Positions 5,443 through 53,346 of a stretch of 64,000 nt of DNA are shown piece after piece. Each line of letters opens with the position of its first letter. Position 1 is the first letter of the stretch. The position numbers were made by a program, and so were the translations under genes. The stretch comes from Eledone cirrhosa (Eukaryota): contig OZ024747.1 of the NCBI GenBank assembly GCA_964016885.1, positions 73,222,001-73,286,000 of the forward strand, in the 5' to 3' direction. The notes beneath the pieces are model-generated. The model was not told where the DNA came from. It made no database searches and saw nothing but the letters and a program-made list of their open reading frames with translations.

Positions 5443-6124
5443 ATTGTTTCTACTTTAGGCACAAGGCCAGCAGTTACTCAGTACATTACTGGTACTTTAT
5501 TTTATCGACCCCGTAAGGATGAAAGGCAAAGTTAACCTCGGCGGGATTTGAACTCAGTTCGTAAAGGGACGTAACTGTACTGCAAAGCATGGCGATAGAC
5601 CCTCTACTGATACTGCCAATCCACCCCCTTAACATGGCGATGGACCCTCTACCGATACTGCCAATCCACCCCCTTAACATGGCGATAGACCCTCTACCGA
5701 TACTGCCAATCCACCACCTTAGCATGGCGATAGACCCTCTACCGATACTGCCAATCCACCCCCTTAACATGGCGATAGATCCTCTACCGATACTGCCAAT
5801 CCACCCCCTTAACATGGCGATAGACCCTCTACCGATACTGCCAATCCACCCCCTTAACATGGCGATAGACCCTCTACCGATACTGCCAATCCACCCCCTT
5901 AACATGGCGATAGACCCTCTACCGATACTGCCAATCCACCCCCTTAACATGGCGATAGACCCTCTACCGATACTGCCAATCCACCCCCTTAACATGGCGA
6001 TAGACCCTCTACCGATACTGCCAATCCACCCCCTTAACATGGCGATAGACCCTCTACCGATACTGCCAATCCACCCCCTTAACATGGCGATAGACCCTCT
6101 ACCGATACTGCCAATCCACCGCCC
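5443..6124 (-). mobile_element. tRNA-derived SINE with tandemly amplified 5' head
   Basis: On the minus strand: A-box-like TGGCAGTATCGG, B-box GAGTTCAAATCC, core GCCTTTCATCCTTACGGGGTCGATAAAATAAAGTACCAG, tail GGCCTTGTGCCTAAAGTAGAAAC. Confidence 0.85.
5588..6124. repeat. 45-bp tandem array, ~12 copies, derived from the SINE head
   Basis: Unit CATGGCGATAGACCCTCTACCGATACTGCCAATCCACCCCCTTAA; 15-aa periodicity in the overlapping ORFs. Confidence 0.95.
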
Positions 6125-6252
6125 TAGGGTATCATAATATATATTCCTCACTAAGTGATGAGTTATCTTACAGTGGAATTTCACCTGTGTACTCACAGGA
6201 TTATCAGACAAGACAGTTTTGTCTAATATATATATACATATATATATGTATG

Positions 6253-14876: not shown

Positions 14877-15485
14877 AGATTAGTAACAGCAGGAGCAGTA
14901 GTAGTGGAATGATGTGAGTAGCAGTGTGAGTGGATAGTAAATAGAGAGTAGCAGCAGCAGTAGGTGTGAGAGTGGCAGCTGGTTAACAGTTGTAGCGGAT
15001 ACCTGCAGTAGTAGGAAAAATTAAAGGGAAACAAAGAATGCAGTGAAGATGGTGGCTGTATCGACGACAGTGAGTTGTATGTGAGAGTAGCAGTAGCAGG
15101 AGAAGTAGGAGGAGGAAGAGGAGCAGGAGAATGATGACAAGCAAAACCTAGGTGCAAAAGTGAAAGTAAATAAGAAAGTAGCGGTTGTGAATAATAATTA
15201 TGATTGGTTGTGGAAGCAGGTGTAACAACAGTAATACAGGTAAGGCAGGTGGCGGTAAAATGTCAAGGGGAGAAATAAACGGCAGCAGTTGTTTCAGAAT
15301 TTGAACTGGTGGCAGAAGCATTGGTAAGGGGGTACTACTTACTACAGAAGACTATGTCTAGAGATGCTTAGGAGATAATAAAAGCACATTGGCAGCGGAA
15401 GGAAGTGAATTCCTCAAGGTGAAACAGTGCAGCACTACAAAAGACACCACAACAGATATGGTGAATGGAAAGAAGAAAATAAAAA

Positions 15486-17231
15486 GGCCAAGGTCATTGA
15501 CACGTGGAGTAGATTTAACGATAAGAACCACTGCCTAAGGCCAAGGTCATTGAAGCGTGGAGTAGAATTGGCTATAAGAACCACTGCCTAAGGCCAAGGT
15601 CATTGAAGCGTGGAGTAGAATTGGCTATAAGATTCACTGCCTAAGGCCAAGGTCATTGAAGCGTGGAGTAGAATTGGCTATAAGAACCACTGCCTACTGC
15701 CAAAGTCATTGAAGCGTGGAGTAGAATTGGCTATAAGAACCACTGCCTAAGGCCAAGGTCATTGAAGCGTGGAGTAGAATTGGCTATAAGAACCACTGCC
15801 TAAGGCCAAGGTCATTGAAGCGTGGAGTAGAATTGGCTATAAGAACCATTGCCTAAGGCCAAGGTCATTGAAGCGTGGAGTAGAATTGGCTATAAGAACC
15901 ACTGCCTAAGGCCAAGGTCATTGAAGCGTGGAGTAGAATTGGCTATAAGAGCCACTGCCTAAGGCCAAGGTCATTGAAGCGTGGAGTAGAATTGGCTATA
16001 AGAACCACTGCCTAAGGCCAAGGTCATTGAAGCGTGGAGTAGAATTGGCTATAAGAACCACTGCCTAAGGCCAAGGTCATTGAAGCGTGGAGTAGATTTG
16101 GCTATAAGAACCACTGCCTAAGGCCAAGGTCATTGAAGCGTGGAGTAGAATTGGCTATAAGAACCACTGCCTACTGCCAAAGTCATTGAAGCGTGGAGTA
16201 GAATTGGCTATAAGAACCACTGCCTAAGACCAAGGTGATTGAAGCGTGGAGTAGAATTGGCTATAAGAACCACTGCCTAAGGCCAAGGTCATTGAAGCGT
16301 GGAGTAGATTTGGCTATAAGAACCACTGCCTAAGTCCAAGGTCATTGAAGCGTGGAGTAGAATTGGCTATAAGAACCACTGCCTAAAGCCAAGGTCATTG
16401 AAGCGTGGAGTAGAATTGGCTATAAACACCACTGCCTAAGGCCAAGGTCATTGAAGCGTGGAGTAGAATTGGCTATAAGAACCCCTGCCTAAGGCCAAGG
16501 TCATTGAAGCGTGGAGTAGAATTGGCTATAAGGACCACTGCCTAAGGCCAAGTTCATTGAAGCGTGGAGTAGAATTGGCTATAAGAACCACTGCCTAAGG
16601 CCAAGGTCATTGAAGCGTGGAGTAGAATTGGCTATAAGAACCACTGCCTAAGGCCAAGGTCATTGAAGCGTGGAGTAGAATTGGCTATAAGATCCACTGC
16701 CTAAGGCCAAGGTCATTGAAGTGTGGAGTAGATTTGACTATACGAACCACTGCCTAAGGCCAAGGTCATTGAAGCGTGGAGTAGATTTGGCTATAAAAAC
16801 CCCTGCCTAAGGCCAAGGTCATTGAAGCGTGGAGTAGAATTGGCTATAAGAACCCCTGCCTAAGGCCAAGGTCATTGAAGCGTGGAGTAGAATTGGCTAT
16901 AAGATTCACTGCCTAAGGCCAAGGTCATTGAAGCGTGGAGTAGAATTGGCTATAAGAACCACTGCCTAATGCCAAGGTCATTGAAGCGTGGAGTAGAATT
17001 GGCTATAAGAACCACTGCCTAAGGCCAAGGTCATTGAAGCGTGGAGTAGAATTGGCTATAAGATCCACTGCCTAAGGCCAAGGTCATTGAAGTGTGGAGT
17101 AGATTTGACTATAAGAACCACTGCCTAAGGCCAAGGTCATTGAAGCGTGGAGTAGATTTGGCTATAAAAAGCCCTGCCTAAGGCCAAGGTCATTGAAGCG
17201 TGGAGTAGATTTGGCTATAAGAACCACTGCC
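15486..17231. repeat. 53-bp minisatellite, ~33 copies
   Basis: Unit GGCCAAGGTCATTGAAGCGTGGAGTAGAATTGGCTATAAGAACCACTGCCTAA, head-to-tail with no spacers. Confidence 0.97.
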
Positions 17232-18030: not shown

Positions 18031-18037
18031 ACCATGT

Positions 18038-18065
<28 letters not shown>

Positions 18066-18068
<3 letters not shown>

Positions 18069-18344
18069 ATATATTAATAAATGGAAACTATATTTATAAA
18101 ACCATATTTATTTTATTATATATATTTCAAGGGCAACCAAGGCAAACTATGGTGCGCTTTCATCAGACAAAAACAGATTTGTTTTATAAATAAATATTGC
18201 CATACCCGGAAAAAAAGACAACCTTAACGGTTGGAGCTTCTTTCTGATGAAAGCACACCATAATCTGCCTTGGTGGCCCTTGAAATATATATAATAAAAT
18301 AAATATGGTTTTATAAATATAGTTTCCATTTATAAATATATTGT
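18066..18344. repeat. Inverted repeat (~105-bp arms) of an HHR-bearing Penelope pLTR-like unit (family A)
   Basis: 18066-18170 is the imperfect reverse complement of 18241-18344. Confidence 0.85.
18111..18172 (-). ncRNA. Type I hammerhead ribozyme motif (family A)
   Basis: Minus strand: ttttgt-CTGATGA-aag...ctt-GAAA-tatataTA-ataaaa. The mirror copy on + at 18244-18299 has an intact core but a broken stem I. Confidence 0.7.
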
Positions 18345-18429
18345 GTCTTTACTCCACTAAACTGTTGAGTGCTTTATTTCAGTTATAACATTTTTAAGGT
18401 TGTTGAATCCCAACAAATTAAATCTAACC

Positions 18430-18514
<85 letters not shown>

Positions 18515-24897: not shown

Positions 24898-25329
24898 GCT
24901 ATCAGACGAGAGGGACTGGATATCCAACTGGCCCACTCGGGTCCTTCTCTGCGCGGACGGCTGGCCAAGAGACACTCCACCAGACATGACAACTGCTGCA
25001 GACTAGCCAACTGCCCCATCAACGACACAGACCTATGCTACCAGGCTTACGTCGTATACAGACTAGAGTGTGACAAATGCAACAACTTCTACGTAGGTAG
25101 CACCACCAGACCACTCCACATAAGAATAAAAGAACACCTCAATACTAACGCTTCCTCATTTAAGAAACACCTAGTTAAATGCAAAAACACCGACAAAACC
25201 ATAACAGTTAGGATAGAAACTAAGGAAAGAAACCTCGGCAATCTTAGAATGAAGGAAGCACTAATTATAGATAAAACACAACCACCAATCAATAATAGAC
25301 TAGAACTCAACACCCAATTTATAACCTGA
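24898..25329 (+). pseudogene. Penelope-like retroelement C-terminal fragment: Cys-rich linker plus GIY-YIG endonuclease (5'-truncated, open frame)
   Basis: Uninterrupted 143-codon frame without an upstream ATG: ...CCRLANCPINDTDLCYQAYVVYRLECDKCNNFYVGSTTRPLHIRIKEHL...RMKEALIIDKTQPPINNRLE...*. Contains VVY..C..C..YVG, R..EH, E and P.IN motifs of PLE GIY-YIG domains. Confidence 0.88.
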
Positions 25330-25735
25330 TAGGGCTTCTAGCCCCATATTTACCCCCCCCCCCCCCACACACGCACGCGCACACACACACGCTTACACCT
25401 CCACTTATTCTCTCTCACACATACATACACAAAACCAGTTCTAATACCAGATAACACCTATCCCCCACATTTACGAATAGACTTATCTTCTCCCACTCAC
25501 ACACACACACTCACATACTTACACCTTCATGCATTCTCCCACACACTTATACAGGCATGTATATAAAATAAAATAAAATAAAAAAACCCTAAACAAACCC
25601 CTTTTAAAGGGAGACTACTCTTTATCCACCTAATTTTAACTCTTTGACATTAGAGATAGAACAGATACTCTATACTATTTCCTGTTAGCATGGCTTGGCA
25701 AGATATTTAGAACGCTGGTTTGAGACCTTTATTTC

Positions 25736-25770
25736 CCTCTGAAGAAGAGATATTATCTCGAAAATTAAGG
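25736..25770 (+). ncRNA. Minimal hammerhead motif in the 3' UTR/pLTR of the Penelope-like fragment
   Basis: cct-CTGAAGA-a-gagat att atctc-GAAA-atTA-agg; short stems I and III. Confidence 0.55.
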
Positions 25771-25883
25771 ACATTTAAATAAATCTAAGGTAAAGGTGAA
25801 TTATCAACAATATCTTTTACAATTGCATTCTTTTTTCTATGTCCATACCTGCATTGTTTTGGCTTTATTACACATATTCAAGC

Positions 25884-25968
<85 letters not shown>

Positions 25969-27380: not shown

Positions 27381-28752
27381 GCAAATACTTCTACACGACT
27401 AGATCTGATTAATTTGTTGGAAGTCACGAGGAAAATCTTTTGTTGTGATTTCATACGAATGAAACAGTTCTAGTCCTGTAGAAGTCATTTCTATATAAAA
27501 TAAAAATGCCTATACTTTACTAATGTGTATTTATATGAAATATAATATAAATGGAAGAATATTACTAAAAGGAAATATGAAGATATAAATGTCAGTATAA
27601 ATATTTATTGTGAGCTTTTCTCACTGTCTAACTCTCTTGTGTGACTTCATCAGCGAAGCATAATCTTCCCAAATTCAATTCATTGAATGTTTTATATACG
27701 TCATTTAGAAAATCCTCAACTAGTTTATCTAAATATATGACGGTGATCCACGGTATTAATTCCCTTTGATCACTTTTTGAAAGCAACTATTTCTACTTGC
27801 AAAACATATCTGCTCACAGATCGTGTACTCCTCAGAAGGCTATATTTCGATGATGATATACAGGATTCGACTGAAAAGTTCATAGTCTGGCTATGATAGA
27901 GCAATGCTATTGCGTGTTAAATCTTGCATGCATTAAATTAAACTCCTCTTATTAATAACTGCCTTGTTACTTTCCAAGTGCTATGTTGTAAAATAAACCT
28001 CTTTAGATCATTCTATGAGAGTATATTGCTCAACCTAGGACCTTTCCAGCCGACCTTCTTATAATAAGACCAAAATATGGCACTAGCTGTCTGTAAGTAT
28101 GTATGTGTGTATGTATGGATATATGTTAAAAAACAAAGGAGATTTCTTTCCTAAGTATCAAAATTATATTTTCTGTTAAACAATTTCAATGAGAATGTTA
28201 GTGTCGCCACAGAAACCTTAGCTTCAGACAACGTTTATCGTCAATAACAAATATCTCTCCCTCATCCCTACATTCAAATAAAAGACAACAAATCACTGTT
28301 GACAATTGTCAAAGAGAAATTCATTAATATGTAACTAAAAGGTATTATACAGCTCCATATATATATCCCTACATACACACATACATACTTACAGACATAC
28401 ATTCATACATACACATACTTACTTACAGACATAAAATGATACATATACACATACATACTTACAGACATACATTCATACATATACACATACATACATTCAT
28501 GCATATTGATTGCTACCTTGTCTGGTCAGTACACCCGCTGACTTACAAATTAAACCACACTCATTGCTAATGTACTGTGGATTGTGCGGAATCCACTAGA
28601 CGGCACCGGCCGTCAGCCTTTCAATATTCATAGCTGGGCTTTCAAAATGTTTATTTATTAAACATACCATATATCTTCAGATGTACGAAATTCACATACA
28701 TGTATGTATACAGCTATAAAGAAGCCACATTTTGATATATATATATATAAAA

Positions 28753-29182
28753 TAAAGTAATTAAGTCAAATATTTAAAATTTGGCTTCGTTTATTAAAGA
28801 TGTACTGCTATATATATTTCGGTGGCAGCCATCATTGGCTGTGACCTCTTCAGGCAGTCCGAATTGGTTTGGTAGAGACAGGTACACATGTTGTTAAAGT
28901 GTTTTACTCCGTCAATACTCCGATATATCCAGCTCCTGGTTGGGTTGTTATTTCTCTCAATATGATTCCAGTTCCTCAGAGAAATAACAACCTAACCAGG
29001 AGCTGGATATATCGGAGTATTGACGGAGTAAAACACTTTAACAACATGTGTACCTGTCTCTACCAAACCAATTCGGACTGCCTGAAGAGGTCACAGCCAA
29101 CGATGGCTGCCACCGAAATATATATAGCAGTACATCTTTAATAAACGAAGCCAAATTTTAAATATTTGACTTAATTATTTTA
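28753..29182. repeat. Long palindrome: ~205-bp arms, 20-nt loop, about 3 mismatches
   Basis: 28753-28957 is the reverse complement of 28978-29182. Confidence 0.95.
29077..29131 (+). ncRNA. Type I hammerhead ribozyme motif (family B); mirror copy on minus strand at 28804-28858
   Basis: actgc-CTGAAGA-ggtcacagcca acga tggctgccacc-GAAA-tatataTA-gcagt; 5-bp stem I and palindromic stem III. Confidence 0.8.
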
Positions 29183-29663
29183 CATTACTCTGGAGTAACC
29201 AAACCAACCTGCGTACTTCGTCGAGTGCTCCAATCTGCATACTCAGGTGTCGGTAAACAACCAACATATACTAAAAAAAAATAAAAATATATATATATAT
29301 ATATATGAACACGAAAATAGCGAGAGAGAGAAAAGAAGGGGAACTCAATTTGATGAGGGGGGGGGGGGGGGGGGGCGGCATTCGCGCCGACCTGCCCCTA
29401 ATCCGATAAATTAGGCCCTGCGCTCACACACACATATACACACGCACACACACACGCACACATGCATACATACATAGATAAATATATAGATATATACATA
29501 CACATATAAATAGATATATACATACATAGATATATTGATATATAATACATATATAGGTATATAGATATATAATAGATATATAAATATATAGATATATAGA
29601 TATATAGATATATACATACACATATATATATATATATATTTATACCCCCCCCCCCCCCCCCCC

Positions 29664-32169: not shown

Positions 32170-32930
32170 GGCGGTGGGTTGGCAGTATCGGTAGAGGGTC
32201 GGACGCCATGATAGGGCGGTGGGTTGGCAGTATCGGTAGAGGGTCGGACGCCATGATAGGGCGGTGGGTTGGCAGTATTGGTAGAGGGTCGGACGCCATG
32301 ATAGGGCGGTGGGTTGGCAGTATCGGTAGAGGGTCGGACGCCATGATAGGGCGGTGGGTTGGCAGTATCGGTAGAGGGTCGGACGCCATGATAGGGCGGT
32401 GGGTTGGCAGTATTGGTAGAGGGTCGGACGCCATGATAGGGCGGTGGGTTGGCAGTATCGGTAGAGGGTCGGACGCCATGATAGGGCGGTGGGTTGGCAG
32501 TATCGGTAGAGGGTCGGACGCCATGATAGGGCGGTGGGTTGGCAGTATCGGTAGAGGGTCGGACGCCATGATAGGGCGGTGGGTTGGCAGTATCGGTAGA
32601 GGGTCGGACGCCATGATAGGGCGGCGGATTGGCAGTATCGGTAGAGGGTCGGACGCCATGATAGGGCGGCGGATTGGCAGTATCGGTAGAGGGTCGGACG
32701 CCATGATAGGGTGGTGGGTTGGCAGTATCGGTAGAGGGTCGGACGCCATGATAGGGCGGTGGGTTGGCAGTATCGGTAGAGGGTCGGACGCCATGATAGG
32801 GCGGTGGGTTGGCAGTATCGGTAGAGGGTCGGACGCCATGATAGGGCGGTGAATTGGCAGTATCGGTAGAGGGTCGGACGCCATGATAGGGCGGTGGATT
32901 GGCAGTATCGGTAGAGGGTCGGACGCCATG
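32170..32930. repeat. 45-bp tandem array, ~17 copies, derived from the SINE head
   Basis: Unit GGCGGTGGGTTGGCAGTATCGGTAGAGGGTCGGACGCCATGATAG. Confidence 0.95.
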
Positions 32931-33360: not shown

Positions 33361-33784
33361 AGATCTAGCTGTCGTCTGTTCTACAGTGTGGATGTCATTC
33401 ACTTCGCACAGAAGTTTTGTTCAAATTTATTGAGGAAATTTTGTGAGTTCAAACTTAATTTTGATACAATTGTGTAGCTTGACCCTCCGTCTGAACTGTC
33501 AGGCGGTGGGTCAGCTCATCTTTACCCCTCCTAGAGGTGAAAAACCTGTTTTAAAAAAAATTTTGTGTAAAAAATTTCAATCGTCTAACAGAAATGTTAA
33601 ACGCAGCGAACGAAAATAGTGGTGGGGGGACAGCGGTAAGAGTTGTAAGCTCGCACGCTTTAGTCCTCCCTTCCTTCCCAACTAACGTCATAGAGAAGGA
33701 AGGAAAAATGAAAATAAAAACGGACGAATCTGCGGAGGAAAAAAAATTAAATGACGAAAACAACGAAAAAAAAAATTTGAAAAA

Positions 33785-35473
33785 TTGCATGACAATACTA
33801 ATAACACAAACAAAGACACAACAAACAAAAAAATAACAGTTGAAAATAACATCATATCAGAAAACAAAGCAGACGACCAGATTTCATTTGCACAGAAAAC
33901 AAAGAAATCTTTGACTTATATAGCGGAAAACATTTCAGATGTGGTACGAAGGATCACGGACGCAAAACAATACATAAGTGAAGGTGAGAATGGTATTTTA
34001 TTGGTAAAAATGCCTCAAGAATTCACGAAAGACATTGAAAGCCGAACGGTCAAGTTTCGGACCATCAACAACAGTACAAAAAAACCTGAACAGCCTTCTC
34101 AAGCAGATATCAAAACAGTACTCGCAGAAGTACTGAATGAAACAACTTTCATAAGAAAAGACAGACTGTATGGAAGTCTAGCAATTATCATGAAGAACGA
34201 ATCGGCGGCAAAAAAATGTGCTTTGTCACCGATTCGTTCGAAATATTTCACCTTTTATCCATCTTATATGGGAAAAAAAACTCAACGCATATGGCTGGAT
34301 GCAATGATGCCAGATGTGGACTACTGCTGGCTCATAGCTGGCTTCATCGATCCAGTGAATGACAACGTGATTTCCATTGGGAAAACCACAGGCAATGCGT
34401 TCAGTGGAACAGGTATAGAGCTGGTAGTACAAATGAAGCCTGAACGCATCGCCCAAATACCCGACAGAATCCTATTAGAGGACCACGGGTATATAAACAT
34501 TAGCGTGGAGGGGAGAAGGCCGTCCTGCCATATCTGTGCAGGCAGAGGGCACCTGAAGGCCGCTTGTCCACAACTCAACAAAAAGAAAACTCTGCTACCA
34601 ACACCAGCTCCACCACCACCACCACAACAGATAAACAAACAACAAAACTCAGTCCCACCCAACCCGTCCCTCAGTAACACCACAACACCACCACAACACA
34701 AACAGTCACAACACATTACCCCAAAACAAAATACAGGCCCACCCAACCTCTCACTCAATAAAACAACACAACCACCGCAGACACAACACACAACACAGTC
34801 TAACATAGTGACATCCATCTCCCCCACAAAGAAAACCAACACGGAAACATTACCAGCAAACATACCTCTTCCCTCCAACACTGAAGATAACCCAACGAAT
34901 TCGGAGGAAGAAACGGAGTCCTTCAGACAGATTAAAAGGAAAAAAAGAAAACATGTGCAAAACACACAAGGACAAACAACCCCCACCCAAATCGCAACAC
35001 AATCTAACAAAACAGAAAACACCCCTCCAGCAACAAACAAAACCAAACCTGCCCCTCCCCTCTTCGAAACACTCACACCATCGGAAAAAAAGACATTACA
35101 CTATACTTACATCAACAGAAATAATAATAAATTAAATGAACTCATATACAATAATCCTTCGGTACAAACCGAAGGTGTAAACTTTGTTTCATCAGAAAAC
35201 CACCCACATTTAAAACTAATAAAAATCCCAATGAACCTCTACCAAAAACTAAAAAAGGATTTTAAGGAGGACGTAGGACCACCCTCTGTCAAACCCATAA
35301 ACCGCGTCCTACTAAAAAGCTTTCCCCCTCCCCTTCCCCTCCCCAACACAACTCCAAACACCCCAACCCCACCACACACCGACGACCCCACACCACCACA
35401 AGACACCCCTTCACCCAACACCCCCGACCCCATGGAAGTCGTGCAACCCGAACCCCGGGAAGCGGAAAGGTAG
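33785..35473 (+). CDS. LINE ORF1 protein (gag-like CCHC knuckle, Pro/Thr-rich tail); start uncertain
   Basis: CHICAGRGHLKAAC matches CX2CX4HX4C. The listed start is TTG; the true N-terminus may be the ATG at 33594 in another frame. Confidence 0.85.
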   Translation: MHDNTNNTNKDTTNKKITVENNIISENKADDQISFAQKTKKSLTYIAENISDVVRRITDAKQYISEGENGILLVKMPQEFTKDIESRTVKFRTINNSTKKPEQPSQADIKTVLAEVLNETTFIRKDRLYGSLAIIMKNESAAKKCALSPIRSKYFTFYPSYMGKKTQRIWLDAMMPDVDYCWLIAGFIDPVNDNVISIGKTTGNAFSGTGIELVVQMKPERIAQIPDRILLEDHGYINISVEGRRPSCHICAGRGHLKAACPQLNKKKTLLPTPAPPPPPQQINKQQNSVPPNPSLSNTTTPPQHKQSQHITPKQNTGPPNLSLNKTTQPPQTQHTTQSNIVTSISPTKKTNTETLPANIPLPSNTEDNPTNSEEETESFRQIKRKKRKHVQNTQGQTTPTQIATQSNKTENTPPATNKTKPAPPLFETLTPSEKKTLHYTYINRNNNKLNELIYNNPSVQTEGVNFVSSENHPHLKLIKIPMNLYQKLKKDFKEDVGPPSVKPINRVLLKSFPPPLPLPNTTPNTPTPPHTDDPTPPQDTPSPNTPDPMEVVQPEPREAER

Positions 35474-35506
35474 GTCTCTACACTCTCCTTTGGCTCTGCC
35501 GCCCAC

Positions 35507-38500
35507 ATGGATGTGTTAAGAGTAGGATGTTTGAATGCACGTGGCCTGGGCTCAACTTGGAAGCAAGCAAAGCTTCTAAATGACCTCAGGTCATGTAGTA
35601 TAAATGTAATGGTTATCTGTGAGACTCGAATCAGCGTCATGCGGCAGCTGGCCCCCACCTTCGATGACTTTGAAGTGCATGCATCTCTCTGTCAACCTGG
35701 AGGTGGGGGTGGGGTTGTCGTGCTGCTGCAAAAACACCTGGGTCTTGCCGTACAGGTTGTGCACTCGGACCCGGAGGGTCGTTTGTTGGTGCTAGACGTT
35801 GGCAGTAGTGAAAGTGCGGCCTTGAGACTGGTCGCCGTCTACTCCCCTTTCGGAGCTGAACGGCCCGACTTCTTCCAGCGTTTGGAGACTTTTCTGGGAA
35901 CGTCGCGTTCCCTGCTTCTAGCGGGGGATTGGAATGACATCCTGGATGCACGTTGGGACTATGCAGGAGCATGTCCTAATAGAGGGGGGTGTAACAGCCT
36001 CAAGGGGTTACTCGACCGTTTTAACTTGGTCGATAGATATCGACTAGATTTTCCAACTGTGCCTACCTGGACTTGGAGAAACCACAGTGGTCAATCTAGA
36101 TCGTACTTAGATAGATTCTTAGTTAGAAGTAAGGATAGGGACATATTAAGCTGTCCAGAAATGCGCACGGTTGGCTACACGGATCACAAATTAGTGACCT
36201 GCGTGGTCAATCTCGAGAAAACACATAGACAGGGTCCCGGTTACTGGAAACTTAATTTGTCTTTACCGGCAAAAGAGACTTACAGAAACCGGATTAGCAG
36301 ATTAGTTAAGGAGAGGTTGACGGGTGCAATCGTCAACAACCGATGGTGGGCATCTCTCAAAAGAGAGATTAGAACAGAATCAATAAGTTATAGCAAGATG
36401 TTAGCTGCCAATAGGAATAGAAACGAGAAAGAATTAACAGGTAAATTAGAAGAGGCAATCAAGAGCGAAGATGTGGCCAGAGTGCTGGCATCGAGGACGG
36501 CCTTGAACCAGTTTTTCGATGCAAAGCATGAAGGCTGCGTCATTCGAAGTAAAATACGTGCTCTAGGTAATGAGGGGGCCAAAGCCGTTGGATGGGCCCG
36601 CGTGACAGAAGCTAAAAGTGGAAATCGATCCACCATCCGGTCGTTGCAAGACGAAGATGGACGAGTGATCCGGGAGCCTAAGCAGATGTGCGAGGCCTTT
36701 CAAAAGCACTTTGCCCGATTGTTCGGGGGAGGCGAGGGTCCGGGCCGGGGCGTGGATTTCGGTCCATACCTCGACGGCCTGCCGCGTCTCTCGAACAAAG
36801 AGGCAGAGTCCTGCGAGGGACCAATCTCGGCTGATGAGATCGGAGATGCGCTGAGCCAATGCAGCAGACGCAAATCTCCAGGTCTCGATGGTATACCTTA
36901 CGAACTTTATTTAGCAATGCCGGTCTTCTTCTCCGAACTCCTCGAAGCGGTCTACTGCAATTGGCAGCAGAACGGGAGAATTCCTTGTTCTGTAGCCAAG
37001 GGCGTAGTCACGCTGGTGAGGAAGGACGAGAACAAGGGGGATAGTATAAATAATTTTCGGCCCATAACCCTGCTAAACACAGAGTTAAAGATTTTGGCCA
37101 AGGTGTTAGCAAAGAGGTTGGCGCTTGTCGTGGGTGGCCTGGTGGGAGATGCGCAGACATGTGCTATCCCATCCAGGTCCATTCACGATAACCTCCACCT
37201 CATGCGATACATCATAGAGAGGGTTGGCAACAAACCCGGCTTCGGTGGGGCCCTGATCAACTTGGATCAGTCTAAGGCCTTCGATAGGGTCGACCATGGT
37301 TACCTGGATGCGGTGCTAGCGGCGGCTGGGTTCGGTCCTGTTTTCAGAGGCTGGATCACTGCCCTACATAGCAACCACATCTGTTCTAGGATCAAGGTGA
37401 ACGGCTACCTTTCGAAGCCGTTCGAAATCACACGATCCATTCGACAGGGGTGCCCTCTCTCCTCCCTTCTGTACGTATTGACTCTCGAGCCTTTACTGAG
37501 GAAGTTGGAGTTGTTGCAGGGTATCCCCCTGGAACCAGGATTGAGCAAAGCGGTGTCGGCCTACGCCGATGACGTAACAGTAATGGTATCAACCGACTCG
37601 GAGATCGAGGCGATCGGTACCTTACTGGAGGAGTACGAAAGGTTGTCAGGAGCGAAACTGAACCGGGAAAAATCCATCGGGCTGCAACTCGGAACGTGGA
37701 GAGGCAAACCGATGCCTCCTGACGGTGTCGTCGGACACTGGACGGAGGGCCCGGTAAAGTTGCTTGGGGTCTGGTTTGGACCGGACCTCCAGGTGGAAAA
37801 GAACTGGAACGAGGTTACGAACAAGGTGTTTGCACTAACCCAGAAATGGGCCAAGTGTAAGCTGTCCCTAAAAGGCCGGGCGGAGGTGGCGAACATTTAC
37901 ATAGCGTCCGTCACTTACTACCGCCTGACTGTCGTGCCTTGCCCTAAGGAAACACTCACCACCATGGAACGCATGCTCTTCCAATTTCTTTGGAAGAAGC
38001 GTCCTCCTATGGTGAGAAGATCCATCTGCTGCCAACAACCTTCGAAAGGAGGGCTGGGGATGCCGTGGTTGATGATGCGTAGGCACGCATTAAGGCTACG
38101 GCACCTACAGGTATTCCTCACTGGTCAACCGGTGTGGGCTCCGTTCGTGAAACGAGCCTTTCCGAGACTCGTCTCACTCACCGAGCTACAGTCCTGGGTC
38201 AAGCAAAGATCCGGAAAACTGGGAGACTGGCACACTGAGTGTGCTCAGGCGCTCAGGGCTCTCTGGCAAGCGGGCCGGGCCATCGGTGGAGAATCCACCT
38301 CATCATTCTATAGAGGGCTGGTGGCTAGCAGGGGCGATGACACCCTTGGAGAGTCGCTGGACATGGAAGAAGACGAACTGGCCAGCCTGTTCGGTAGGAC
38401 TTTCGGCCCAGGACCAATGGACAACTTCCAGAAGTCACTGGCCTGGCAGTGCTACCGAGGGGCTCTACCTGTTCGAGAGAGGCTCTACAGACACGGGCGC

Positions 38501-38944
38501 CCGGGCAGGGATCCCTCAAAAAAGATTTGCCCTAGATGCGTGCGTCACGAAGAAACCGTGGCGCACGCATTGGTGCAATGTCCGGGCGTGGCTGATCTGT
38601 GGGGCTACGCCGAACAACTGCTGTCGCGGGTGGCGCCGATTAAATTGACCGCCGAGTCCGTGATGACAATCAAACCGCCTCCCCTCTTCACAAAGGAAGC
38701 AAAGGCGGTTTTTCTGTGCGTAATAGCCATGTTGAAAGAGGTTGTTTGGTGGACACGATTGAAAGGTCTGAGGTCAGGCAACTTCCTCTCTGGCCATAGT
38801 CTGGTCTACTTCTTCCGATATCACTTCGGAAGAAGGATAAGAATGGAGAGAGAGGTGCTTGGCCACAGGCAGTTTTATGAAAGGTGGGTGATAGTGGCGA
38901 GAATGGCTCGTGTAAATGGGCCTTCTCTGTATACCATCCTGTAG
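35507..38944 (+). CDS. LINE ORF2 protein: APE endonuclease, reverse transcriptase and C-terminal CCHC (1145 aa, intact)
   Basis: LNARGL, CETR, AGDWN, SYLDRF, TDH (APE); GYWKLN, KSPGLDG, FRPITLLN, DQSKAFDRV, RQGCPLS, AYADD (RT); CPRC..ETVAHALVQC. Confidence 0.97.
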   Translation: MDVLRVGCLNARGLGSTWKQAKLLNDLRSCSINVMVICETRISVMRQLAPTFDDFEVHASLCQPGGGGGVVVLLQKHLGLAVQVVHSDPEGRLLVLDVGSSESAALRLVAVYSPFGAERPDFFQRLETFLGTSRSLLLAGDWNDILDARWDYAGACPNRGGCNSLKGLLDRFNLVDRYRLDFPTVPTWTWRNHSGQSRSYLDRFLVRSKDRDILSCPEMRTVGYTDHKLVTCVVNLEKTHRQGPGYWKLNLSLPAKETYRNRISRLVKERLTGAIVNNRWWASLKREIRTESISYSKMLAANRNRNEKELTGKLEEAIKSEDVARVLASRTALNQFFDAKHEGCVIRSKIRALGNEGAKAVGWARVTEAKSGNRSTIRSLQDEDGRVIREPKQMCEAFQKHFARLFGGGEGPGRGVDFGPYLDGLPRLSNKEAESCEGPISADEIGDALSQCSRRKSPGLDGIPYELYLAMPVFFSELLEAVYCNWQQNGRIPCSVAKGVVTLVRKDENKGDSINNFRPITLLNTELKILAKVLAKRLALVVGGLVGDAQTCAIPSRSIHDNLHLMRYIIERVGNKPGFGGALINLDQSKAFDRVDHGYLDAVLAAAGFGPVFRGWITALHSNHICSRIKVNGYLSKPFEITRSIRQGCPLSSLLYVLTLEPLLRKLELLQGIPLEPGLSKAVSAYADDVTVMVSTDSEIEAIGTLLEEYERLSGAKLNREKSIGLQLGTWRGKPMPPDGVVGHWTEGPVKLLGVWFGPDLQVEKNWNEVTNKVFALTQKWAKCKLSLKGRAEVANIYIASVTYYRLTVVPCPKETLTTMERMLFQFLWKKRPPMVRRSICCQQPSKGGLGMPWLMMRRHALRLRHLQVFLTGQPVWAPFVKRAFPRLVSLTELQSWVKQRSGKLGDWHTECAQALRALWQAGRAIGGESTSSFYRGLVASRGDDTLGESLDMEEDELASLFGRTFGPGPMDNFQKSLAWQCYRGALPVRERLYRHGRPGRDPSKKICPRCVRHEETVAHALVQCPGVADLWGYAEQLLSRVAPIKLTAESVMTIKPPPLFTKEAKAVFLCVIAMLKEVVWWTRLKGLRSGNFLSGHSLVYFFRYHFGRRIRMEREVLGHRQFYERWVIVARMARVNGPSLYTIL

Positions 38945-50700: not shown

Positions 50701-50734
<34 letters not shown>

Positions 50735-50785
50735 AGTATTCTATAAGTCTCTAGCTGTGTCATTCTCGATAAAAGCACTGGATAT

Positions 50786-50828
50786 GTAGTCCTGATGATT
50801 TCTAACAAGAATGAAACGCGTAGATTAC
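50786..50828 (+). ncRNA. Type I hammerhead ribozyme (family D), copy 1
   Basis: gtagtc-CTGATGA-tttc taacaa gaat-GAAA-cgc-GTA-gattac. Stem I is extended by a perfect 16-bp helix, 50762-50777 with 50835-50850. Confidence 0.82.
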
Positions 50829-51095
50829 TTCCCTTGCTTTTATCGAGAATCTAATTGTAATACGTGACGTATTCTATTCTATAGCGATTAGGTCTTCAAA
50901 ATGTTTATTATAAGCATACAGAATATTTTCGAATATTCTATGTCTATATTCACATATATATCGCTATTTCAGAGCATTTATTCCAATTTCTAATTTCTGC
51001 CGGACCGGCAACCGCTCTTTCAAACCAGTTCCTGTACACAGCTAAGTATTCTATAAGTCTCTAGCTGTGTCATTCTCGATAAAAGCACTGGATAT

Positions 51096-51138
51096 GTAGT
51101 CCTGATGATTTCTAACAAGAATGAAACGCGTAGATTAC
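51096..51138 (+). ncRNA. Type I hammerhead ribozyme (family D), copy 2
   Basis: Identical to copy 1, 310 bp downstream. Confidence 0.82.
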
Positions 51139-51332
51139 TTCCCTTGCTTTTATCGAGAATCTAATTGTAATACGTGACGTATTCTATTCTATAGCGATTA
51201 GGTCTTCAAAATGTTTATTATAAGCATACAGAATATTTTCGAATATTCTATGTCTATATTCACATATATATATATATATATATATACATGTATATATGTA
51301 TGTGTGTGTTAATGTATATATATATACATTAG

Positions 51333-51429
<97 letters not shown>

Positions 51430-51582
51430 TTATATCTTTACATATACATGTATGTATTTGTTAATGTATATATATATATATATAGTTACCTCTAGATCCT
51501 CTACTTCACTAATATACAACTCTGCATCATACCATGTATCGAGTACTACTCTGATTTGTAGTCTTTCCACTTCTCGTACAGC

Positions 51583-52447: not shown

Positions 52448-53041
52448 CTCCGATTAAGAGACCATTGTAGTACGCATTTGTAGAAGAACGCAATTTTAAT
52501 ATTTTAATAAACGCGTGGATGTATTTATTTACTTCAGTGTTTCCTTACAAAATAGCCAATATATTTCAATATTCTAAGTAGGGTATCTTCGGGTGAAACT
52601 GACTGGTACTATATATAGAAAGAGAGCTATATATATATCGTTATTAAGTGAAACAAGCTGAAGCAACTTTTAAGATAAGACAAAATTGTGTGTAGAATGA
52701 AATGTTGATTGAATGAAGCTAGAGGAAAGAGAAAAGTCGAATGAAAGGATTTGATGTGGGATTGAATAATATATTTACCTCTTTCAATTTAATAAGAAAG
52801 AATTAGGTATTTAATGTATGGAATATACCATTCTTATCTAGCTCATATCTGTAGAACGGATACGCACGCTGTTCTATTGATAGCCGGGCTTTCTGGGCGT
52901 ATATATATATATATATATATGTGTGTGCGTGTTAATATATATATATATACATTAACACACACATACATACATCCCTGGAATAACTTGAACCGTTAAGGTA
53001 TATTATCCTTGGTCATGTCAAATATTTATAAAACATTTTGT

Positions 53042-53100
53042 ATTTTATCTGATGATAGCGCACCAAAATTTTGGTACCCTTGAAATATATATAATTGAAT
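53042..53100 (+). ncRNA. Type I hammerhead motif (family A) within a ~270-bp pLTR-like unit (52975-53245)
   Basis: attttat-CTGATGA-tagcgcaccaaaattttggtaccctt-GAAA-tatataTA-attgaat. Flanks match the 18.1-18.7 kb copies. Confidence 0.65.
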
Positions 53101-53259
53101 AAATATGGTTTTATAAATATAGTTTTCTATTTATTTAATATCATTGAATATTTACTCCAGAAACTTGTCGAGTGCTCTGAATCAGTTATAAACATTTATA
53201 TTTATTTGTTGTATTTCCAACAAATTAAATCCAACAAATTAAATATCCCTTCTACTTAT

Positions 53260-53346
<87 letters not shown>

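Follow-up and report, generated by a model that had tools for sequence, protein, structure and literature searches.

The question raised by this locus is what two hammerhead motifs represent that lie 310 bp apart in a 64,000-nt stretch of Eledone cirrhosa DNA (the window). The preliminary description of the window considered a young retrozyme or, alternatively, a partial-tandem terminal repeat (pLTR) of a coding Penelope-like element (PLE). Judged from its sequence, the stretch is best explained as a non-LTR retrozyme: a hammerhead repeat of 310 nt without coding capacity that was inserted recently and as a single arm.

The repeat in the window

We found that positions 50732-50961 and 51042-51271 of the window formed a 230-nt direct repeat with 100% identity and a spacing of 310, giving 1.74 units, which confirmed the earlier claim of two identical hammerheads 310 bp apart. 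The palindromic stem III (ACGCGT in the DNA, ACGCGU in the RNA) and the GTA motifs of the two cleavage sites were also located where the preliminary description had placed them, cleavage at these sites being a prediction. Its microsatellite flanks corresponded to a (TC)n tract at the 5' junction and a (TA)n-rich target tract at the 3' junction (Table 1). The 3' boundary of the insertion was the short 3' end of the family described below, and its last 8 nt were shared with the (TA)n target. The segment in which the other family end falls, the tail, was not an end in this copy. The window copy represents the minority, single-arm form of the family and, taken alone, is an ordinary retrozyme dimer. 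Its haplotype was that of the C4 insertion L031, indicating that the window insertion is very recent.

Table 1. Features of the insertion in the window; unit positions are numbered from the cleavage site.
Feature	Position	Strand	Remarks
Whole insertion, single-arm retrozyme array of 1.74 units	50732..51271	+	5'-truncated at unit position 220
Hammerhead 1, type I	50762..50850	+	16-bp distal helix, internal loop, 6-bp stem I
Core of hammerhead 1	CUGAUGA 50792-50798; GAAA 50813-50816; palindrome 50816-50821		stem II with U.U base
Predicted cleavage, hammerhead 1	after GUA, 50822	+	
Hammerhead 2, same sequence as hammerhead 1	51072..51160	+	predicted cleavage after 51132
Predicted 310-nt monomer, site to site	50823..51132	+	35% GC; 60% of bases pair in the circular fold
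Short-end site, unit 128-139, internal (AU)4 tract	50950..50961	+	junction of nearly every insertion with (TA)n at one end; putative first priming site
Tail segment, unit 140-172	50962..50994	+	two-arm insertions stop at 164-172; putative second priming site
(TC)n tract	50703..50733	.	5' junction of the insertion
(TA)n-rich target tract	51264..51484	.	3' junction of the insertion

The putative hammerhead and the predicted unit RNA

The fold of a 6-bp stem I, an internal loop, a 3-bp helix and a 16-bp distal helix had a z-score of -5.6 with none of 200 shuffled sequences as stable, in agreement with the distal helix that had been described beyond the internal loop. As a circle, the 310-nt unit had an MFE of -68.1 kcal/mol (z-score of -4.0, 60 shuffles). 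The longest ATG ORF on the circularised unit measured 30 aa on the plus strand and 17 aa on the minus strand, consistent with the earlier statement that the repeat has no ORF. Rfam recognition was weak: in 571 nt, Hammerhead_HH9 reached 19.2 bits, below its gathering score of 52, with an E-value of 0.047. A scan of the whole window gave no hammerhead match at E<=0.1, and the matches obtained in that scan were rejected as microsatellite-driven miRNA noise. An ungapped alignment of 12 hammerheads, drawn from the 310-nt family and from three repeat families related to it in this genome, had 93.9% of its cells paired as compared to 41-53% in slid controls, and 11 of the 15 base pairs of the hammerhead stems showed changes on both sides; the shuffle counts for this covariation are not probabilities since the sequences are related. 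As comparative evidence, covariation across the related families is stronger support for the putative hammerhead than the Rfam score.

Stem II had 4 bp with a U.U base pair, and the monomeric stem III consisted of one A-U pair. As modelled, the U.U pair and the one-pair stem III are weak features of the hammerhead. The MFE fold of 540 nt was without stem II, and forcing both monomeric hammerheads cost 13.4 kcal/mol; the duplex of the ACGCGU palindrome was computed at -7.5 kcal/mol. Sparing of the core within the family was not significant (none of 22 inherited variant positions in the 16 core sites, p = 0.30). In the accessible text of a preprint (10.64898/2026.07.22.740005), only one of nine predicted retrozyme dimers cleaved in vitro, and the hammerhead analyzed here may cleave slowly. 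Transcripts of the family are predicted to undergo self-cleavage and ligation to a 310-nt circle.

Size, age and targets of the family

Patterns of the repeat were searched for genome-wide in the 3.0-Gb assembly containing the window. A 32-nt hammerhead pattern, which misses common variants, gave 5,319 exact matches while its reversed control gave none. The junction-pattern search identified 1,661 short-end junctions and 985 tail junctions on the forward strand (~1,970 on both strands); the 3,541 rows of the reverse tail search counted each site several times. From these junction patterns we estimated a family of ~1,700-2,000 dispersed insertions at (TA)n tracts and, at ~8 units per insertion, roughly 15,000 units or 4-5 Mb. 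Since (TA)n hosts the insertions, a target-site duplication, which exceeds 4 bp where retrozymes have one, is unreadable there (29 flank pairs). Non-fixed differences amounted to 0.04% per base, indicating that the arrays are very young. The proposal of a young retrozyme was supported by these thousands of near-identical units in dispersed tandem arrays, and the genome-wide check of copy number and tandem arrangement that it had called for gave the insertion numbers above, with arms of up to 27 units.

Head-to-head arms and two fixed ends

Two-arm, head-to-head insertions accounted for 56 of the 69 examined, the window counted, and each had one short and one tail end. In these insertions a minus-strand tandem arm was followed by a plus-strand arm, with the 3' ends outward into (TA)n. 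The short end was at unit position 128-139 and the tail end at 164-172, ~26-40 nt longer. A first search, in which the ends were not used as a criterion, gave 14 other insertions at 13 loci, and all 14 were head-to-head. Of 41 insertions fetched by their short ends on C1, 32 were two-armed and 9 were single-armed like the window copy; this sample represents the first 44 short-end matches less one already analyzed and two with a nearby tail match. Among 13 C1 tail matches without a listed short partner, 10 were two-armed, one fell at an assembly gap, one was ambiguous and one was tail-only. Short-only arms outnumbered tail-only arms on the sampled C1 stretch by 9 to 1 (or 2; p of 0.02-0.07), which suggests earlier use of the short site.

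Beyond the TA tract, sequences flanking two-arm insertions on the left bore no relation to those on the right (29 shown), and this excludes mirrored-read artefacts. A (TA)n DNA end is able to pair with the internal (AU)4 tract in which the short end falls; at the tail end, which is predicted to lie in an unpaired loop, such pairing is limited to 1-2 nt. At one locus (L169:4499-4770), 272 nt of an unrelated non-LTR retrotransposon lay precisely where the two arms meet; this piece had 97% identity to copies that cluster on C25 and possibly reflects a template switch during joining.

Haplotypes, lengths and start points of the arms

We compared the full units of 47 insertions and found that 278 of 324 matched the modal haplotype of their own insertion. 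The insertions carried 31 distinct haplotypes, with 4% of insertion pairs sharing one, and no arm-specific fixed variant was present in the 21 insertions with at least two units per arm. One haplotype per insertion indicates that both arms derive from one haplotype, most simply from one molecule. The arms read through the cleavage site without a scar. The start points of the two arms were independent, with a mean circular distance of 75 nt against 77.5 expected at 31 centres (one segmental duplicate included, one rearranged insertion left out), and were not piled at the cleavage site, only 7 of 62 being in the first tenth of the unit. The short-end arm was the longer one at 14 of these centres and the tail arm at 17. 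Arm length exceeded one unit in 52 of 60 arms (87%, duplicate removed) and fitted an exponential with a mean of 4.6 units (KS p = 0.60). Multi-unit arms of independent length and start cannot be obtained from a linear monomer template. Overlaps of at least 2 nt were present at 18 of 30 centres by BLAST boundaries as compared to 18% expected, a proportion inflated by BLAST extension.

Variants that were not fixed within an insertion recurred in two insertions in only one of 24 cases. The arms of 19 and 27 units, the longest of all (L114 and L118), held variants that recurred in two units, indicating some growth after insertion, and older arrays kept their private mutations unhomogenised. Near-mirror centres (within 7 nt) were found in 4 of 31 cases as compared to 1.5 expected, and a few non-fixed variants were present in both arms (L038, L040 and L118); these observations leave room for fold-back copying in a minority of insertions.

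Occurrence in public sequencing runs

In 20 public runs with 17 organism labels from 16 studies, the unit was nearly unchanged and 63-87% of its sampled words were present. None of the runs listed with the unit was an RNA dataset, which bears on expression neither way. All three contig sets examined contained a closed contig of 331-340 nt with a 310-nt loop, a depth of ~10 and no flanks, and each carried the family majority letter at 50914. The end-to-start joint in these contigs is not proof of an RNA circle since tandem DNA collapses likewise. Raw Hi-C reads of organism K, one of the 17 labels, gave no unit reads in 1,938 million letters, which says only that the genome of K holds no high-copy unit. 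A SINE-like 25-mer of the host genome had 163,661 exact copies. The public runs support the unit being real outside the assembly. We think it highly improbable that the 310-nt RNA, besides being a genomic parasite, is a free circle turning up across species; a simpler explanation of the runs would be cross-contamination, or trace DNA from a genome that holds ~15,000 units.

Related and neighbouring elements

An older sister family of ~320-nt units (4,227 candidates) shared unit positions 59-235, both end sites and the head-to-head form with the 310-nt family (examples at L042:8174-8950, L045:4492-5188, L049:4323-5595, L048:4923-5345 and L141-L164). Its hammerhead was a different one, in which the core is of the U3-A8 variant and the palindromic stem III has greater length. 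The shared end sites together with the different hammerhead indicate that the ribozyme and the end-site module were swapped separately. Other multi-unit hammerhead families with units of ~420-500 nt and a CUAG palindrome (L043:2189-4605, L031:1000-2612, L036:2982-4330) had head-to-head geometry and (TA)n ends as in the 310-nt family. A head-to-head mini element of sub-unit length (L094:5130-5326, L090:6507-6704, L036:8732-8865) combined a hammerhead core almost the same as in the 310-nt family with a long stem III and a tail of ~70 nt.

The window itself contained small non-coding hammerhead-like elements of other families at 28735-29300, 18037-18435 and 52990-53260; the first two are head-to-head and meet (TA)n with one short and one tailed end. 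A 5'-truncated PLE was present at 24898-25890; after GIY-YIG comes its 3' repeat, which contains a minimal hammerhead (25739). The element ends at (TA)n and is preceded by a 34-nt tandem array. An L1-like non-LTR retrotransposon, in which ORF1 (572 aa) and ORF2 (1,156 aa; endonuclease, RT and zf-RVT) are open, occupied 33755-38944, with a truncated second copy at 1196-2269. Tandem arrays were found at 5588-6125, 32170-32930 and 15484-17231, consisting of 45-nt minisatellites that grew within SINE-like repeats (two sites on opposite strands) and a 33-copy 53-nt array.

Relation to Penelope-like elements

According to the accessible parts of PMC8557442 and PMC3846280, the footprint of PLEs consists of insertion at microsatellites, an inverted copy truncated on its 5' side and, at one end, a tail of 30-40 bp. 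The 310-nt family had the inverted 5'-truncated copy in 56 of 69 insertions, the window copy being an exception, and the PLE-like tail, with one short (128-139) and one long (164-172) end per two-arm insertion. The genome contained 10,597 GIY-YIG candidates. Its coding PLEs with RT and GIY-YIG carried hammerheads in their 3' repeats and had paired short and long ends at (TA)n, located 77 vs 140-144, 123-133 vs 173 and 119 vs 164 nt past the motif. Several of them had the CxxxxCxxC linker motif given for Neptune/Nematis, a likeness by motif and not by tree.

We detected no likeness to the unit in 50 GIY-YIG loci and 16 PLE 3' regions, a small part of the 10,597 candidates, and no coding partner at 24 loci of the older sister family. 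Matches in L052, L090 and L094 were rejected as partners, being separate non-coding insertions, and the GIY-YIG fragment at 24898-25329 of the window and its L1-like element were unrelated to the unit. The unit did not continue a PLE ORF in any of 85 sequences tested (L165-L177 were outside that set). Neither within the unit nor attached to it in those 85 sequences did we find the ORF of an autonomous EN+ PLE. The earlier alternative of a partial-tandem pLTR of a coding PLE was not supported by this result, and the unit does not occur solely as the end of a coding PLE, an outcome that the preliminary description had named as contrary to a retrozyme. A PLE enzyme likely mobilises the 310-nt family, a reading that rests on the footprint since no coding partner was present among the loci examined.

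Proposed mechanism and alternatives

We consider it probable that one circular RNA serves as the template for a PLE reverse transcriptase, which starts a cDNA at each end of the cut target and keeps going round the circle. This scheme starts from what was read directly in the sequence: the number of copies and their location in (TA)n, the head-to-head geometry with its two fixed 3' ends, the single haplotype of each insertion, and arms that vary independently in length and starting position. An array would first be transcribed by read-through. Cleavage would follow, probably in dimeric form via the ACGCGU palindrome (the dimer rule is given in the accessible text of PMC4209133), and then, by analogy, ligation into a 310-nt circle through a host RtcB-type ligase. 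Circularisation by a host ligase was shown in vitro for other retrozymes, according to the available text of PMC7229834. The (TA)n target would be cut by the PLE GIY-YIG endonuclease. The first DNA end would pair with the internal (AU)4 tract at unit position 132-139 and prime there, and the second would prime ~26-40 nt further 3' with 1-2 nt of pairing and give rise to the tail. Each cDNA would roll for a random number of rounds (mean of 4.6), and the two cDNAs would be joined at short overlaps. Should the second priming fail, only one arm would be made and become linked to a simple repeat; the window copy would be such a case.

The same PLE machinery and twin priming could alternatively have used an uncleaved linear multimeric transcript of the source array. 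Sequence alone cannot separate a circle from a transcript of a homogeneous array, and the hammerhead, with its weak features, may cleave slowly (cf. the one of nine dimers in the preprint). We regard such a template as unlikely, since the 31 haplotypes among 47 insertions, fixed across units, would require repeated passage through a single unit and re-amplification, since recurrence in two insertions was limited to one of 24 non-fixed variants, and since 5'-truncated copying would shrink the arrays at each generation whereas the arms average 4.6 units. It is also quite unlikely that the second arm was copied from the first by fold-back and self-priming of the target-primed cDNA, for which an antisense self-priming model of PLE inversions has been proposed (PMC3846280, accessible text). 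Fold-back would directly explain the single haplotype in both arms, and the 4 of 31 near-mirror centres and the few non-fixed variants common to both arms are consistent with it. However, a copied arm could not be longer than its template, yet either arm was the longer one (short in 14 and tail in 17 of 31), and both sites would need to be a start as well as a precise stop, with start points that were independent overall.

Growth in place was the other route considered, in which a PLE terminal repeat lands as a monomer and becomes a minisatellite by unequal crossover; later growth by unequal crossover is the view favoured in the accessible text of 10.64898/2026.07.22.740005. The repeated variants in the two longest arms (L114 and L118) indicated some local duplication, but ~2,000 very young dispersed arrays would each have to grow two inverted arms with fixed outer ends, and older arrays kept private mutations that had not been homogenised. 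We hold this to be hardly credible. Even less probable, and largely refuted, is the reading in which a coding PLE contributed the stretch as its partial-tandem terminal repeat, or the assembly created it as an artefact. PLE terminal repeats do bear type I hammerheads with a palindromic helix III (accessible text of PMC4209133), but none of the 85 sequences continued a PLE ORF. Against an artefact, which the preliminary description had raised as a possible source of the duplication, stand the flanks of two-arm insertions, unrelated beyond the TA tract, and the same 310-nt period assembled from three public runs.

Comparison with known systems

The 310-nt family has the sequence characters of a retrozyme, with many tandem copies, a hammerhead in each unit that has its core, stems and loop-1 bulge, no coding capacity, a GC content below 50% and a predicted circle that is stable. 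With the metazoan non-LTR retrozymes, as far as the accessible text of Cervera and de la Pena 2020 (PMC7229834) and Li et al. 2026 (10.64898/2026.07.22.740005) describes them, it shares a non-coding tandem unit within 150-450 bp, low GC, a canonical type I hammerhead, a self-paired predicted circle and the lack of LTR, PBS and PPT. Two axolotl retrozyme families in these accessible sources also have the U.U at the base of helix II, a one-pair helix III and a palindromic tetraloop. The difference is that cleavage and circular RNA were shown for those retrozymes, whereas both are predicted for the 310-nt family. The accessible main texts of these two papers say nothing of head-to-head double arrays, fixed short and tail ends or a preference for (TA)n targets. 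The kind of element is known and its anatomy has been described for PLEs in the accessible literature; we found no published description of head-to-head, tailed, clonal retrozyme arrays in a search that covered few subscription journals.

In the available text of the same retrozyme papers, the mobilisation of animal retrozymes by PLEs and the origin of tandem arrays by reverse transcription round a circle are both put forward as hypotheses. The ~2,000 young footprints bear on retrozyme mobilisation, on the origin of arrays and on the inverted copies and tails of PLEs, and the anatomy makes these three hypotheses testable. In these footprints a retrozyme carries ends of the PLE type, the multimers of either arm are clonal, and the two putative priming sites are fixed ~30 nt apart; with these sites mapped, the 310-nt template is usable for an in vitro PLE assay.

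The EN+ PLEs (Neptune/Nematis and Naiad; accessible text of PMC8557442 and PMC3846280) share with the family an inverted 5'-truncated copy, a 30-40 bp tail, microsatellite targets and a hammerhead upstream of the 3' end. In contrast to these elements, as they are described there, the 310-nt family has no ORF, both of its arms are multimers and its hammerhead is canonical rather than minimal; the unit also had no sequence likeness to the terminal repeats of the sampled coding PLEs. Chlamys PLEs such as MRC1, in the accessible text of PMC8557442, are likewise non-coding PLE parasites, often in multicopy head-to-tail arrays, generally without canonical hammerheads and with a 3' end like that of the autonomous partner. 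Unlike them, the 310-nt family has a canonical hammerhead, and no partner was found among the loci examined.

In L1 twin priming, a single linear poly(A) RNA is primed from both ends of the target, at a second site that varies, and the resulting inverted arm is joined at a short overlap. In the 310-nt family, by contrast, both sites are fixed and both arms are longer than the unit.
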